From: Candidatus Bathyarchaeia archaeon
Lineage (GTDB): Archaea > Thermoproteota > Bathyarchaeia > 40CM-2-53-6
Direction: 5' to 3'
DNA length: 64,000 bases
NCBI GenBank assembly: GCA_049513715.1
Contig: JBEKVV010000001.1
Span: 192,001 to 256,000, forward strand
A program made the translations under genes and the position numbers. Below, piece by piece: positions 43,840 through 63,404 of this stretch. The notes below the pieces were generated by a model. That model worked only from the letters and a program-made list of their open reading frames with translations. It was not told the origin of the DNA and made no database searches. Position 1 is the first letter of the stretch. Each line of letters starts with the position of its first letter.

Positions 43840-44148
43840 GGGTTGTGCGTGTTGGTCGTAACCCACCTTCTGTTTTAGGCGACATTCATCTAATCGGGAT
43901 ACCCGCGCCTCAGGCGGAGGTTCACAGGCGCCTATTATCCCTTTCACGGCGTGTGTAGGCCTTTCACCCTTACCGCTAGCCTCCTCAACGCAAGCGCATC
44001 ATAGTCCACGACTAGCGGAGGTCCGTTTCTGCGCCTTAACCCAGCCTCTCAGCTGGCACCTCGCAGTGCCACGCTTCCGCCACGTGGGTGGAGTTTCCTC
44101 AAGCCCCATACACATAGGGCCCGGAGTCGCCCACCAACTCGCCAACCC
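43840..44148 (-). ncRNA. rnpB: RNase P RNA
   Basis: Minus strand GAGGAAACTCCACCC ... GCAGAAA ... AACAGAAGGTGGGTTA (P4 halves); complementary termini; ends approximate. Confidence 0.92.
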
Positions 44149-54452: not shown

Positions 54453-55598
54453 TTACCTGCGGGGCCGCTCAATGGCCGCGCGTCCGTTCCTCTTGACAAG
54501 CAACTTCTTGGGCGCGCGAAGGCGTCGGAGTTCAGTGAGGCACCGGCTTAGGTCGAATGTCCATCCCTCTTCATCGTCGAACAGTTCATAGGATATTGTC
54601 TGTGTCTCCCGAGCGGAGAAGTCCAACCTAACCGAAGAGAAATCGTTGAGCATTCTCGCTTTGGCCATCTCGGAGAAGAAATCGAACATGCTTAAGAGCT
54701 GAGATTGGAGAATGGTCGTTCGCACAATGAGAGTGTTTTTGCGGAGAACCTTCGAGAAGCCTATAATGAAGAATAGGTCGTCTATGAGAGAGACTAACTT
54801 GTTTAGCGACGATTCACTTGTGAACTCGAGCATGATCTCATGGTACGCTGAGACCTCCGGAGGGTAGGGATGGACGTCAAGCGCGAAGCTGCCGATTATC
54901 CCGTTTGGAATCAGCCTCTTATCATAGCGGTATTTTGCGCCGGGGAGAGTCATCTCAAGCATCGAGGCAAGGTCCGTGTATCTCCTTCGGCCATTCTTCT
55001 CAAGTTCCTTTACAATAAGCAGGTCTTTCCTGTCAGCGAGATTGGGATAGCCGTCAGGGTCTGATATAGTTCGTTGAGGTTTGATCTTCTTGAGGGTGTT
55101 GAACCATCGTTCCCATGGAATCGTCCATTGATTTGCGGCGGGATTGTAGTATTTGAAGTTAGGAAAGTTCGGTTGCTGTTCTCCGGTCTGAATGATTTCG
55201 AAGCGAGTGATCAATCCTAGTCTGAGGACGGATCGCAGATACTCTTTGAACTCATCAAGAAACTTGACGGGGACGGCGTGAACTGAGTGGTGTGTGAATG
55301 CGCCTTCGCAGCGGTTGATTGACCACCACCAGTTGGGTATCTTGAGAGCCGCCTCCGCGCGATCCTCATAGCCTGATCTTGCGGTGACCAAGACTACTAG
55401 CCTTGTCATGCCGAACCTCGATATGTTGGGAATCAAGTAAGCAACACGCCGAGAACGGGCTTCAAGTTTTGCCACGCGATGGTACACCGAGGTGAATGGA
55501 ATATTGGTCCGTCTGGACACTTCTAGGAGGTTCCTCGGGCCGTATTTCCACATGGCGGAGAGTATCTTGATGTTTGTTCGGTCGAGTTGCTTCGCCAT
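54453..55598 (-). CDS. Tandem (double) Lrp/AsnC-like wHTH regulator
   Basis: Two HTH units LDRTNIKILSAM..VYHRVAKL and DRKDLLIVKELEKNGR..AKYRY; start at MAKQLD. Confidence 0.8.
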   Translation of the reverse strand: MAKQLDRTNIKILSAMWKYGPRNLLEVSRRTNIPFTSVYHRVAKLEARSRRVAYLIPNISRFGMTRLVVLVTARSGYEDRAEAALKIPNWWWSINRCEGAFTHHSVHAVPVKFLDEFKEYLRSVLRLGLITRFEIIQTGEQQPNFPNFKYYNPAANQWTIPWERWFNTLKKIKPQRTISDPDGYPNLADRKDLLIVKELEKNGRRRYTDLASMLEMTLPGAKYRYDKRLIPNGIIGSFALDVHPYPPEVSAYHEIMLEFTSESSLNKLVSLIDDLFFIIGFSKVLRKNTLIVRTTILQSQLLSMFDFFSEMAKARMLNDFSSVRLDFSARETQTISYELFDDEEGWTFDLSRCLTELRRLRAPKKLLVKRNGRAAIERPRR

Positions 55599-55739
55599 CT
55601 CTCTGACTGGTTTGACGGTGTCCGTGATGTGCACGGTTTCTGTCTGCAATGCAAACAACTGCGATTAGTACTGCTACCTGAGTTTATTATTCTTATCAAA
55701 AAATATGAAATGGGAGTTTTGCTTCGAGGGTTAACAGGC

Positions 55740-55871
55740 TTACAGTAGAATGGCTGCGATTATGTTGTGAGTGCCTCCTCCGCCCGGGTCGCCCGCACTG
55801 ACGTGAGTAAGGGTCAGCGCTACGGTCAGTAGAACGGACGCGGCAAGGGCGAGGAACATGAACTTGTTCAT
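55740..55871 (-). CDS. 43-aa putative secreted peptide (below the ORF-track cutoff)
   Basis: GGAGGTGA SD; MNKFMFLALAASVLLTVALTLTHVSA|GDPGGGGTHNIIAAILL*. Confidence 0.75.
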   Translation of the reverse strand: MNKFMFLALAASVLLTVALTLTHVSAGDPGGGGTHNIIAAILL

Positions 55872-55987
55872 GCTTGGATTCACCTCCCGTATATGAAGCA
55901 ATGTCAAGGTACTTAGTTTTTTACAAGAACAGGTTAAAGAGCAGGTAATCGATTTCCCACCGAGCGTGGGAGTGCGCAGAGTCAGTT

Positions 55988-56224
55988 TTGTGCGATCATT
56001 GCGAGGCCTTAGAGAAGACGTTGGTTCCTCTTCTGGGAGCCAAGACGACCGAGATTATTCTTGGGAGAGTGAAGCGAGAATTGCACAGCGATTTGGCTGT
56101 GGAGGTTAGATTCAACCGCAAAATTCCGGATGTTGGGCTTGGCCGGATTGAACCGGGGACGCGGCGACCTCTTCTAGCCGGTCAAATCAGAAGGGGTAGC
56201 AGAATGAATCGTAATTCTAAATAG
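55988..56224 (+). CDS. Small hypothetical protein
   Basis: Fills the gap before coxM; CxxC then an amphipathic helix; could be spurious. Confidence 0.35.
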   Translation: MCDHCEALEKTLVPLLGAKTTEIILGRVKRELHSDLAVEVRFNRKIPDVGLGRIEPGTRRPLLAGQIRRGSRMNRNSK

Positions 56225-56275: not shown

Positions 56276-57151
56276 GTGATTCCCCCACGTTTTGATTACG
56301 TCGCGCCGCGTGAGTTGGCCGAAGCTGTCGACTTTCTTGAAAAGCATGGCGATTATGCAAAGATCCTCGCTGGAGGACACAGCCTCATTCCTTTGCTGCG
56401 TTTCAGATTTGCAAGCCCCAAGTATCTGGTGGATATCAACGGCATTTCCGATCTCGAGTACATGCGCGAATCTGATGGCCACCTGCATATTGGGCCCCTC
56501 ACTCGCTATGTAGATGTCGAGAGCTCGAAGTTAATTCAGTCGAAATATGCGGCACTGTCGGATGCGGCTGGGCATATTGCTGATCCACTGGTTAGGAACA
56601 TGGGCACGGTTGGGGGCAACGTTTGCCATAGTGACCCAGCGAACGACCTGCCCGCGGTCATGTTGGCTCTCGGAGCCTCAATCATTGCAGTTGGTCGTGC
56701 TGGTGAACGTGTCATCCCCGCTGAAGAGTTCTTCGTGGACACTTTCCAGACTGCACTGAAGCCAACCGAACTCCTCAAGGAGATTCTGGTACCGATTCCT
56801 CCTGCACGCACGGGGAACGCTTACCTCAAGTTGGAGAGAGGAGCGGGCGACTTCCCCGTGGTCGGCGTCGCAGCCCAAGTAAGACTTGATGAACAGGGCA
56901 GCTGCGAAGCCGTTGGGCTAGGTTTGACAGCGGCCGCTCCCAAGGTGCTCAAACCCAAACGTGCGGAGACCTTTCTCGAAGGTAAGAGGCTCAGTGAGAA
57001 GGAGATTCAAGAGGCAGCGTCTCTTGCGGCTCAAGACGCACAACCAGTATCCGACATACGCGGTCCAGCAGAATACAAACGAGAAATGGTCCAGGTTTTG
57101 GCGTTTCGAGCCTTGCAGCAGGCTCTAGAGCGAGCACGAGGAGGGGCCTGA
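56276..57151 (+). CDS. Xanthine dehydrogenase family FAD subunit (CoxM/CutM-like)
   Basis: [34 protein letters not shown]. Confidence 0.93.
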
Positions 57152-57153
57152 AC

Positions 57154-57651
57154 ATGTCTCTGCACCACATCGTTGTGACGGTGAATGGAGAGAAGCGCGA
57201 AGCCGAAGTAGACTCGCGCCTGCTTCTGGTGCATTTCCTCAGAGAGACGCTGGGGCTTACGGGCACACACATTGGTTGCGATACAAGTAACTGCGGCGCA
57301 TGTGCAGTGATAATGGATGGCAAAGCAGTCAAGTCCTGCACGATTCTCGCCGTGCAGGCAGATGGGAAGGAGCTACTCACTGTTGAGGGGTTAGCGAAGA
57401 ATGGAAAGCTCCACCCCGTGCAGGAGGGCTTCCTGAAGAAGCACGGTCTTCAATGCGGTTTCTGCACGCCAGGAATGCTCATGACATCGTACTGGCTTCT
57501 TCAAAAGAACCCGAATCCAACGGAAGCGGAAATTCAAAGGGGAATTTCCGGAAACCTCTGCCGATGCACAGGTTACGTCAAAATTGTCGAGGCAATCCAA
57601 TACGCGTCGCAGAAGATGAGGGAGAGCAATGCACAAGTTCAAACCAAATGA
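57154..57651 (+). CDS. Xanthine dehydrogenase family 2Fe-2S subunit (CoxS/CutS-like)
   Basis: [27 protein letters not shown]. Confidence 0.95.
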
Positions 57652-57702
57652 CGGATATCAAGACCGTTCTGTCACACAAAGAAACTTGGCGGGTGGTTAT
57701 CC

Positions 57703-59730
57703 ATGAGCGACAACTTGCGTCGCCTTGTCGAAGGTCGAGGACAGTTCGTGGACGATTTGCATCTCCCGAACATGCTCCACCTAAAGCTGGTGCGAAGTCC
57801 CTATGCTCGGGCGCGGGTTGCGAAAGTGAAAGGAGGAATAAACGGTTCCGAAGTCAAGTTTGATTTGGTGTCGGTAGGCGAAGGCGCGTCCGATGAGACC
57901 CAGACCGTTGCTTACCCTGTCCTCGCGTCGGATTACGTTAACTATGCCGGACAACCTGTCGCTGCCGTATTCGCAGAGGATCTCTACAAGGCAACGGACA
58001 AGATAGAAGAGGTGGAAGTTGAGTATGAACCACTGAAGCCTGTCGTTGATCCGGAAGAGGCTTTGCGCTCTGAGCCAATTCATCCCGGCACAAAATCCAA
58101 CATCATCAGCAGTGTTCAACTTGGCAAGGATTTCCGTGTCCCAAATGCCTACGTGGAGCTTGAAGAGGAATTTGCGAACGAGAGGATAATTACCGACCCA
58201 CTAGAACCCCGCGGACTCGTCGCGCATTTCGACGGATCGAGACTAACCGTGTGGGCGTCGACTCAGTCTGTTCACAGTTGGAAAGAAGGCATCTGTGATT
58301 GCATGGGTCTATCCGCTGACAAGGTGAGGGTTATCCAGTTGGACACTGGAGGAGCATTCGGCAGCAAGAGCAGTCTCTACCCTGAGTACGTGGTCGCCTG
58401 CTACCTCTCAATGAAGACGCGAAGACCTGTGAAATGGATCGAGACTCGTTCCGAGCATTTGTTGGTTACCCATCAGGGCAGAGGCACTAGAGCCAAAATG
58501 AGAATCTTCGCAGATAGAACTGGCGTCGTGTATGGCTTGAAGGGGGACTTGCTTGTAGATGCGGGAGCATATCCTGTGGGGATGGGAGCCTTCGCGCCTG
58601 GTTGGATAGGATTCCAGGTGACTGGACCATACACTTTCTCCCATGCCCTTGTCAACGCGAAGTCCGTGTACACAAACAAAGTTCCTTTGGGGCCGTATAG
58701 GGGAGCTGGAAGGCCTGAGGCAGCATTCTTCATTGAAAGGATGATGGACCTGCTAGCCGACGAACTTGGCATGGACCCTGTTGAGGTCAGACTCAAGAAC
58801 GTCAGTGGCGAACCATTCGTTTCGCCGCTCGGCCTGAGAACTGAACCATTCAAGCCGTTCCTTGAATCCGCCGCGCGCGAACTAGATTATCAAAACAGAG
58901 CACGAAAAGGAGCCGTGGGCTTCTCATGTTTCGTACTGATCCCTGCGATTCAACCTGGAGAATCGGCACGAGTGGCGATTGCGAAAGGGAAGGTCAAGGT
59001 TTGGATGGGTGGCTGCGCGCACGGTCAGGGTCATGATATCCTAGCGAAGGTGCTTGTAAGTGAGGAGTTGGGTGTTCCAGAAGCTTGCATTGAAGTTGAG
59101 AAGGGTGACACCGACCAATTGAGCGAAGGTGTTGGAACTTGGGGCAGCAGAACCACCATCGTGGGAGGAGGGGCCCTTGTTCAGGCTTGCCGAAAAATCA
59201 AGGATGAGGCCAAAAAGGCACTAGGGGACTACAGCTCTGATGCCTTGCTCGATCATGAGTTTGATGCTGAAGTCTTCTTCTCCCGGCGTGAACCGCTGAA
59301 CTCATTCGGAGCGAACTTGGTATCTGCATCCGCGGGCGAATTCGGTGTAATACGAATTGATGAGTGCATGGCTTACTACGACGCCGGGCGAGTTCTTAAT
59401 CCGGCAATGGTTGAGAGTCAGATAATAGGCGGCTCCGCACAAGCGATCGGGCAGGTGCTGTATGAAGAAGCCAAATATGATGAAGATGGCCAGCTGCTCG
59501 CAGCCACTATGGCAGAAGCAGGAATGCCAAAGGCCCAACACATGCCCAGGTTCACAATCAAACTGGCAACCAACACTTCGTCCCCCAACCAACCAAGAGG
59601 AGTCGGAGAAAGCCCAACAATGGGCGTCCCACCCGCCGCCGTCAGGGCTATTGAGAAATTGACCCGTAGGAAACTCACAGAGACACCAATTCGACCAGAG
59701 GACATTTCATCCAAGAAACTTGCGAAATGA
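57703..59730 (+). CDS. Xanthine dehydrogenase family molybdopterin subunit (CoxL/CutL-like, not form I)
   Basis: GGAFGSK, PYRGAGRPE, HGQGH, GTWGSR, RGVGE. Confidence 0.9.
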   Translation: MSDNLRRLVEGRGQFVDDLHLPNMLHLKLVRSPYARARVAKVKGGINGSEVKFDLVSVGEGASDETQTVAYPVLASDYVNYAGQPVAAVFAEDLYKATDKIEEVEVEYEPLKPVVDPEEALRSEPIHPGTKSNIISSVQLGKDFRVPNAYVELEEEFANERIITDPLEPRGLVAHFDGSRLTVWASTQSVHSWKEGICDCMGLSADKVRVIQLDTGGAFGSKSSLYPEYVVACYLSMKTRRPVKWIETRSEHLLVTHQGRGTRAKMRIFADRTGVVYGLKGDLLVDAGAYPVGMGAFAPGWIGFQVTGPYTFSHALVNAKSVYTNKVPLGPYRGAGRPEAAFFIERMMDLLADELGMDPVEVRLKNVSGEPFVSPLGLRTEPFKPFLESAARELDYQNRARKGAVGFSCFVLIPAIQPGESARVAIAKGKVKVWMGGCAHGQGHDILAKVLVSEELGVPEACIEVEKGDTDQLSEGVGTWGSRTTIVGGGALVQACRKIKDEAKKALGDYSSDALLDHEFDAEVFFSRREPLNSFGANLVSASAGEFGVIRIDECMAYYDAGRVLNPAMVESQIIGGSAQAIGQVLYEEAKYDEDGQLLAATMAEAGMPKAQHMPRFTIKLATNTSSPNQPRGVGESPTMGVPPAAVRAIEKLTRRKLTETPIRPEDISSKKLAK

Positions 59731-59757: not shown

Positions 59758-59849
59758 TGGTGGGCCTGGCCGGATTTGAACCGGCGACCCCACGATCTCT
59801 GAGCAGCTGATATCAGTCGTGTGCTCCAACCATGCTGAGCTACAGGCCC
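59758..59849 (-). tRNA. tRNA-Ile(GAT) with 14-nt intron at 37/38 (59797-59810), encoded CCA
   Basis: Cloverleaf GGGCCTG/CAGGCCC; CACGA-CT-GAT-A|intron|A-TCGTG; GGTTCAAATCC. Confidence 0.95.
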
Positions 59850-63286: not shown

Positions 63287-63404
63287 GGGCCGGTAGTTCA
63301 GCCTGGTATACCCCAAGAATCATCAAGGGCCAAAGAACGCCCGGTTCGCATAAGTTCCAAGAAAAACCGGGAGGCCGCGGGTTCAAATCCCGCCCGGTCC
63401 ACCA
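63287..63404 (+). tRNA. tRNA-Ala(CGC) with two introns (D-arm 63310-63334; 37/38 63351-63365), encoded CCA
   Basis: GGGCCGG/CCGGTCC with G3:U70; CCCGG-TT-CGC-A|..|A-CCGGG; intron removal restores CAGCCTGGTATGAAC. Confidence 0.92.

Follow-up and report, generated by a model that had tools for sequence, protein, structure and literature searches.

The window analysed here is a 64,000-nt stretch of a contig from a soil/peat Bathyarchaeia genus (Candidatus Bathyarchaeia archaeon, GenBank JBEKVV010000001.1, positions 192,001 to 256,000), and all positions below are counted from its first letter. On its minus strand, a very small gene lies upstream of, and in the same orientation as, a gene for a protein built from two Lrp/AsnC-like units. 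The small gene (55740..55871) has 43 codons and a stop (ATG at 55871, stop at 55742-55740) and, read from that ATG, encodes MNKFMFLALAASVLLTVALTLTHVSAGDPGGGGTHNIIAAILL. The original prediction described it as a secreted micropeptide with a strong Shine-Dalgarno site and a Sec-type signal, and proposed that the peptide is exported, processed, taken up again and sensed by the neighbouring regulator. We confirmed the ATG, the stop and the Shine-Dalgarno site (GGAGGTGA, 55880..55887, minus strand), which ends 8 nt ahead of the ATG. Farther upstream on the same strand is a promoter-like box made up of a TFB-recognition element (BRE) and a TATA element (CTTGTAAAAAACTAAG, 55912..55927).

Between the two genes (55682..55710, minus strand), a T-rich stretch is followed by an A/T-rich TATA-like box (GATAAGAATAATAAAC). 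Its run of six Ts (55703-55698, minus strand), 3' of the peptide stop, is likely the archaeal terminator of the peptide gene, and the box would then be part of the regulator's promoter; we infer both assignments from the sequence. The regulator gene (54453..55649, minus strand) encodes 398 amino acids from a TTG at 55649, or 381 if it starts at an ATG at 55598. The TTG is the more likely start, which corrects the earlier one, because a database gene call (P0063) has the same length of 398 amino acids and because orthologues keep the N-terminal extension. With this start, about 90 nt separate the peptide stop from the regulator. The first unit, with a helix-turn-helix (HTH) and a RAM domain, spans about 55598-55059, and the second, also with an HTH and a RAM domain, about 55058-54507 (both on the minus strand).

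Is the small reading frame a gene? A stretch of 5.5 kb contains 67 open reading frames of at least 30 amino acids, so a frame of 43 codons is unremarkable on its own, and we judged it by conservation instead. The same kind of frame is found upstream of the regulator in related genomes (by tblastn and by a six-frame scan of the orthologous loci). A profile of the peptide matched 62 clusters in a collection of 5.8 billion proteins; these are 37-85 amino acids long and all are "hypothetical" or unnamed. (Relatives are annotated as "hypothetical protein" in at least two metagenome-assembled genomes at NCBI.) A filter-free search with a hidden Markov model against 1.84 billion representatives (at 50% identity) gave 30 matches at E <= 0.001, two of which are long proteins that match the glycine run only. 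We found no significant Pfam or NCBIfam family for the peptide, and a search of the ESM Atlas gave scores of 0.80-0.81 only, which is the chance level.

The relatives vary by in-frame insertions and repeats, and the pattern of substitutions is that of a coding sequence. By the Nei-Gojobori method, six single-core genes have ratios of nonsynonymous to synonymous change (pN/pS) of about 0.1-0.35 in the C-terminal core versus 0.5-0.9 in the signal region, with synonymous sites close to saturation. In the closest pair of loci (L014 and L067), the core has two synonymous changes and no nonsynonymous ones. The gene is under purifying selection, strongest on the C-terminal core. The control elements recur as well. 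A TTGTAAA(T/A)AA box, which the window's promoter-like box matches, stands at -50 to -56 relative to the start codon in 8 of 8 co-oriented loci compared. Among the eight other co-oriented loci, six have Shine-Dalgarno sites of the GGAGGTGA or GGAGGTGAG type and two have a weaker GTGGTGA. All nine loci compared have an oligo-T run and then a TATA-like box between the peptide stop and the regulator. Judged by this conservation, and not by its length, the 43-codon frame is a real, conserved gene.

The precursor has the layout of a secreted propeptide. Residues 1-26 are a predicted signal peptide (MNK, a hydrophobic core, and V-S-A) and residues 27-43 are the predicted mature core, GDPGGGGTHNIIAAILL. 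The n-region is basic (M-S/N-K/R-F-K) and 17-20 hydrophobic residues follow it. Across 32 single-core sequences, V24, A26, G27, G31, G32 and H35 are invariant, and after V-x-A and the glycine come a near-invariant aspartate and then G-G, H and I-I. Both sites of a Sec-type cleavage motif hold small residues (V at -3 and A at -1, each in 32/32), in agreement with the signal that had been predicted. Cleavage after V-x-A, which we infer from this motif, would leave a peptide of the form G-D-x-x-G-G-G-(x)-H-x-I-I-x-A-L-L. The core is 15-17 amino acids long, and its sequence diversifies between lineages. G-G-(G)-H is invariant in the 32 single-core sequences and in 10 genome copies, but the glycine run can be as short as 3 or as long as 7 residues, no histidine is present in the core of 8 of 22 more distant family members, and two clusters have a proline immediately before the histidine.

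Other kinds of small exported or regulatory peptide fit less well, judged by their motifs as generally known. There is no G/A at the site expected after the basic residues in a class III (pilin-type) signal, there is no [GAS]-C as in a lipobox, and the tail is too short for PGF-CTERM. We also rejected a leader peptide of the attenuation type, because the gene comes with a promoter-like box and an oligo-T stop of its own and because one clade has it divergent from the regulator, with another gene in between.

Some family members have more than one core. In some there are two (GDGTGGGGHGIAKALL twice), and in others there are one to four cores of the form GGGGGGHIISALLN, each after an arginine, with AMTPLR spacers between them. 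The same short context stands ahead of every core (in P0016, for example, HVRHAFM and RVRHASL, each directly ahead of GD), and the number of cores varies from one to four among close relatives. Tandem cores with repeated flanks are the pattern of precursors that are cut into several identical peptides, and so point to proteolytic release. Some 1.2 kb upstream of the peptide gene, two peptide-bearing loci have a gene for an HtrA-like protease with Trypsin_2 and PDZ domains (L025:502-1449 and L030:505-1452, both on the minus strand). The first is confirmed by Pfam, the second is the equivalent open reading frame by position, and we saw none at the other loci scanned. This protease could be a processing enzyme.

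Among the Bathyarchaeia genomes searched, the peptide was found in one genus only. Of the 23 genomes in the window's genus, 12 match the profile, each at a single locus; these are also the only matches among 401 genomes sampled from the class, as the class-wide search found the peptide in 0 of the 378 genomes outside the genus. All 12 loci adjoin a homologue of the regulator, as judged by comparing the coordinates of peptide and regulator matches. Ten of the peptide genes are co-oriented with the regulator and lie 125-164 nt upstream of its aligned start, and the other two (in genomes G010 and G006) are divergent from it, about 0.8 kb off, with a gene for a 184-amino-acid protein between. A 13th, partial copy lies at a contig end in genome G009, also beside the regulator. 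The two genes are strictly linked, and every peptide copy adjoins one subgroup of the tandem Lrp/AsnC regulators.

The pairing is kept in at least three contexts: next to rRNA and Cox-like genes, as in the window; among genes for a methyltransferase, a thioesterase and a major facilitator superfamily (MFS) transporter; and beside a Nik/Opp-type operon, with the cassette inverted. In the third context (G010, G006 and 12 metagenome loci), genes for a substrate-binding protein (SBP_bac_5), two permeases and two oligo_HPY ATPases come after the multi-core gene, and NikR is next after this importer operon wherever the contig reaches far enough. (The multi-core metagenome loci were found by a degenerate DNA pattern search.) At L074 (G010:C354:3000-12400) and at L076-L087, the multi-core gene sits between the regulator operon and the importer, with NikR beyond.

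On profile and model evidence, the large protein is a tandem Lrp/AsnC regulator with predicted DNA binding, its two fused units forming a covalent pseudo-dimer. It has two HTH_AsnC-type stretches (residues 5-47 and 189-227 of the 381-residue form; E = 1.1e-10), and all 24 family members match this type (PF13404 and PF13412). The family does not match Pfam's RAM family (PF01037); its RAM parts are too diverged. A profile of the 24 members nevertheless matched 20 or more Lrp/AsnC regulators among PDB sequences, and PH0061, PH0140, LrpA, LrpC, ST1022, FL11 and AsnC match both halves, across HTH and RAM. An AlphaFold2 model from the family alignment (predicted local distance difference test score of 91.6) has two modules, each with an HTH and a beta-alpha-beta-beta-alpha-beta fold. 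The two Lrp/AsnC-like units of the original prediction are therefore upheld. Neither Pfam, nor the PDB profile search, nor the fold search found a tetratricopeptide repeat (TPR) domain in the regulator.

The family comprises 517 database clusters, whose sources call it "DNA-binding Lrp family transcriptional regulator". In 20 of the 22 other genomes of the genus there are strong orthologues (E <= 3e-96), often as 2-4 paralogues, and the window's genome has a second copy with 43% identity. At one locus (L071, G016:C1:1346950-1351312), a frameshift at the linker between the units splits the regulator into open reading frames of 248 and 202 amino acids, each with an HTH and a RAM domain. The split may exist in nature or stem from an assembly error; the adjoining peptide gene is intact.

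The original prediction also considered that the large protein might prove to be a siroheme decarboxylase of the AhbAB/NirDL type, which has a tandem Lrp fold as well. The two best Foldseek matches to the model are indeed NirDL structures (4ch7 and 4czc), and 4ch7 aligns over the whole length with a template modelling (TM) score of 0.52. But its root-mean-square deviation (rmsd) is 12 Å, the identity of the NirDL match is 10-11% (11% for 4ch7), and these are the only tandem Lrp-fold chains among the matches listed, which explains why NirDL ranks first. Taken alone, each half fits Lrp regulators at 3.1-3.5 Å with 17-23% identity, and AhbA/B ranks 45th. There was no NirDL or AhbAB sequence among the profile matches to PDB sequences, and none of the 24 family members matches AsnC_trans_reg2 (PF17805). 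The window's genome has no PF17805 match either, while control genomes do. Instead, its tetrapyrrole cluster contains HemC, HemD, HemB, a HemQ-like protein, HemE and HemH. (HemC, HemB, HemE and HemH score above their NCBIfam cut-offs, HemD and the HemQ-like protein below theirs.) HemE, HemH and a HemQ-like protein beside HemB, HemC and HemD make up the coproporphyrin route, in which a siroheme decarboxylase is not required. In this cluster (L088, G000:C6:74000-93000), hemC, hemD, hemB, the HemQ-like gene, hemE and hemH are consecutive, and a radical SAM/SPASM gene (TIGR04053) precedes them. Archaea do not usually have a coproporphyrin-type heme route; as the genome has a contamination rating of 8.8%, the origin of this contig calls for caution.

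About half of the homologous regulators lack the peptide gene and have one for a small cytoplasmic protein upstream instead, a point on which the original prediction is not supported. In a maximum-likelihood tree of 34 regulators, the peptide-bearing clades are apart from a clade of 11 rows without the peptide (support 85/73), and the peptide label requires two changes on the tree, which 0 of 500 shuffles match. In 10 of these 11 rows, a co-oriented gene for a protein of 55-85 amino acids with a C-(D/E)-H-C motif is directly upstream of the regulator, in the peptide's place. A homologous gene is present at four peptide loci (the window's, L002, L005 and L016), where it is divergent from the peptide gene. 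In the window it is the 78-codon gene at 55988..56224 on the plus strand, and its product is similar to the homologue at locus L010 (E = 8e-10). The protein begins with C-D-H-C, has a conserved motif L..L.G.K....I..R...ELH, and belongs to a conserved family of small proteins that matches no Pfam or NCBIfam family. (It is weakly similar, at E = 0.01, to a 184-amino-acid XylR_N-like protein in the G010 clade.) The gene is probably a third member of the cassette.

When we compared 11 peptide-linked with 10 C-x-H-C-linked regulators, only 4 of 381 positions were group-specific, and all four differences are conservative. This argues against a receptor pocket that was remodelled for the peptide. Taken together, the peptide and the regulator appear from their genomic distribution to be a heritable, genus-restricted cassette, often with the small C-x-H-C protein.

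Our favoured reading, to which we give a probability of about one half, is that the cassette makes an exported and processed peptide that acts outside the cell and whose expression is controlled locally by the double-Lrp protein. The Sec system would export the precursor and signal peptidase would cut it after V-x-A, which would release a peptide of 15-17 residues that starts with G-D, continues with a glycine run and, in most cases, a histidine, and ends in a hydrophobic I-I-x-A-L-L tail. Several copies would be freed by an additional protease in relatives that have 2-4 cores. The peptide gene would be its own transcription unit (with its TATA-like box, Shine-Dalgarno site and oligo-T stop), and the double-Lrp protein would bind the short intergenic regions and set its transcription in response to a small intracellular ligand, as Lrp/FFRP (feast/famine regulatory protein) regulators do. 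Outside the cell, the peptide may be a signal, a membrane-active peptide or a metal binder. These steps (export, cleavage, control by the regulator and an extracellular role) are predictions from sequence. Since the peptide gene comes with a promoter and an oligo-T stop to itself, simple local regulation explains the linkage as well as a sensing loop does.

Several observations weigh against this reading. First, the linkage alone does not tell which of the two genes acts on which, and, being related copies from a single genus, the 12 linked loci stand for few independent events. Second, the peptide gene has been lost within the peptide clades: three loci (L007, L008 and L063) have none, and in genome G011 (L012, 640-990) the gene has decayed to an 18-codon remnant (MSSICLAAGDGGGGGSGN) that keeps the promoter-like box, the Shine-Dalgarno site and the start, with the hydrophobic segment deleted and the tail gone. 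Third, a k-mer analysis across loci found no conserved palindrome or other site for the regulator, as only the TATA-like box and the Shine-Dalgarno site are conserved. Fourth, the hydrophobic stretch of 17-20 residues is long, and an uncleaved membrane anchor is possible.

That last point leads to a different reading, in which the product is a small membrane protein with an uncleaved N-terminal anchor, and its short tail on the outside would modulate a transporter, a sensor or another partner in the membrane. A segment of this length suffices to span the membrane, and genes for MFS transporters are near many of the loci. However, MFS genes also flank loci that lack the peptide (L039). The invariant V-x-A followed by G-D corresponds to what signal peptidase requires and is hard to explain in an anchor. 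The tail is more constrained than the hydrophobic segment, and one to four tandem tails with repeated spacers suit released units better. We consider a membrane protein rather unlikely.

It is also unlikely that the locus is an RRNPP-like signalling loop, in which the released peptide accumulates outside, is re-imported (for example by an Opp-type ATP-binding cassette (ABC) importer), binds the tandem Lrp protein and switches transcription. Much of what we observed suits such a loop: the strict linkage of peptide and regulator, a Sec-type propeptide whose conserved part is C-terminal, a core that diversifies from lineage to lineage, the narrow, genus-level distribution, and a clade in which the gene is directly upstream of an importer of the Opp/Dpp/Nik family. 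Tandemly duplicated cores are also known from some Phr propeptides of RRNPPA systems, which carry tandem copies of the pheromone according to one paper (PMC11343458). But the adjacency to an importer is limited to one narrow clade, with substrate-binding proteins at 83-100% identity, and regulators with and without the peptide differ at no more than 4 conservative group-specific positions of 381. In addition, no peptide gene was found in largely complete genomes that have the sister regulators (G018, 98% complete, and G021, 95%). Solved Lrp/AsnC complexes among the PDB matches hold amino acids in their RAM domains (L-Ile, Gln, Leu or Phe), and a term search of a review of archaeal Lrp proteins (PMC2995911) returned no passage on peptide ligands or on fused forms. 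A complex prediction that paired the L003 regulator, in two copies, with its peptide's mature region of 32 residues and two cores scored 0.00 (against a mark of 0.32); it was run without controls and counts neither way.

A broader form of this idea is that the locus is the first archaeal cassette for cell-to-cell signalling by peptide: a Sec-exported, multi-copy pro-pheromone would yield a peptide of roughly 15 amino acids that feeds back through the adjacent doubled Lrp protein, which it could reach by direct binding at the RAM interface or by uptake through an Opp-family importer. We regard this as doubtful too. If true, it would be a functional analogue of the RRNPP systems on an unrelated receptor fold. 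The locus is a credible, unproven candidate for archaeal peptide signalling. Full-text searches listed no paper on archaeal peptide-based communication or on this peptide family, and for archaeal precursor peptides they gave only studies of RiPPs (peptides made by the ribosome and modified after translation).

A role in metal uptake seems quite improbable. In this reading, extracellular Ni(II) or Cu(II) is bound by the glycine run and the histidine and is then carried as a complex to a NikABCDE-like importer. Gly-Gly-His-type sequences are classical nickel and copper binders, and the invariant G-G-(G)-H fits this, as does the position of the gene in the G010/G006 clade and the 12 metagenome loci, next to a Nik/Opp-type importer and then NikR. 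The substrate-binding protein and permease of that importer score best against NCBIfam models of the NikA/NikB type, though below the cut-off. However, the core histidine is missing from 8 of the 22 distant family members, a proline directly ahead of the histidine occurs in two clusters, and the length of the glycine run varies. The peptide gene has its own oligo-T stop ahead of the gene for the substrate-binding protein, the clade linked to the importer is narrow (as its 83-100% identity indicates), and the NikR gene of the window's genome is on a different contig. An aid to uptake would also be expected in more than one genus. Finally, the reading of the large protein as a siroheme decarboxylase, with a small reading frame that has nothing to do with regulation, is already contradicted by the profile, fold and pathway results given above, as well as by the presence of up to 3-4 paralogues per genome, and is scarcely tenable.

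As for the surroundings of the locus, a 16S-23S rRNA operon is downstream of the regulator. Upstream, on the opposite strand, the gene for the 78-amino-acid protein is followed by a CoxM/S/L-like cluster of three genes (56276-59730, plus strand), which encodes a molybdenum hydroxylase of the CO-dehydrogenase/xanthine-dehydrogenase type. (Pfam confirms its FAD subunit; the other two, a small [2Fe-2S]-like subunit and a large one of 675 amino acids, were read from the translations only.) Two tRNA matches, at 59761-59849 (minus strand, 89 nt) and 63287-63401 (plus strand, 115 nt), are longer than a plain tRNA and probably carry introns. The archaeal RNase P RNA is at 43847-44142.

Whatever the peptide does, the locus offers a pair that can be tested: a peptide of 17 amino acids that can be synthesised, a regulator of 398 amino acids that can be expressed, and two short intergenic regions, at 55650-55739 and 55872-55987, where it might bind DNA. 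Should the peptide not be a signal, it would still represent an unnamed family of exported mini-peptides, with a variable number of cores, in abundant soil and peat Bathyarchaeia. Its regulator likewise stands for a large family, the 517 clusters, in which two Lrp units are covalently joined and which has small partner genes.

We can compare the locus with four kinds of known system. Like the archaeal Lrp/AsnC proteins (FL11/PH1519, PH0061, PH0140, LrpA and ST1022), the regulator aligns over HTH and RAM in both halves, at the rmsd given above; unlike them, it fuses two units in one chain, and its RAM parts have diverged beyond PF01037. With NirDL/AhbAB it shares the tandem Lrp-fold architecture, and NirDL is its best structural match over the whole length, but there is no match at the level of sequence families, both HTHs are of the DNA-binding AsnC type, and the pathway context is absent from the genome.

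Precursors of cyanobactins and of yeast alpha-factor have one leader followed by repeated identical cores with repeated cleavage contexts. The multi-core relatives of our peptide are similar in having one leader and repeated cores, but a Sec signal takes the place of a RiPP leader. We found no modifying enzyme, dedicated protease or dedicated exporter conserved beside the peptide gene at the loci scanned. The neighbours vary, and a gene for a small S-adenosylmethionine-dependent methyltransferase also flanks loci that lack the peptide, which is not the pattern of a RiPP cluster.

The RRNPP(A) and Rgg-SHP systems of Bacillota (Rap-Phr, PlcR-PapR and AimR-AimP) likewise have a tiny gene for an exported propeptide beside the gene for a cytoplasmic transcription factor. 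In both cases, the active or putatively active part is C-terminal, the distribution is restricted by lineage, and the peptides diversify between lineages. The differences are that the candidate receptor here is a doubled Lrp/AsnC protein (HTH and RAM) and not a TPR protein, that the host is an archaeon, that the peptide gene is placed upstream of the regulator and has a promoter and a stop to itself, and that half of the regulator family goes without the peptide. The cassette is not a member of the RRNPP family, as the TPR receptor that defines the family is absent; by analogy, the RRNPP systems nonetheless appear to be its closest functional counterpart.

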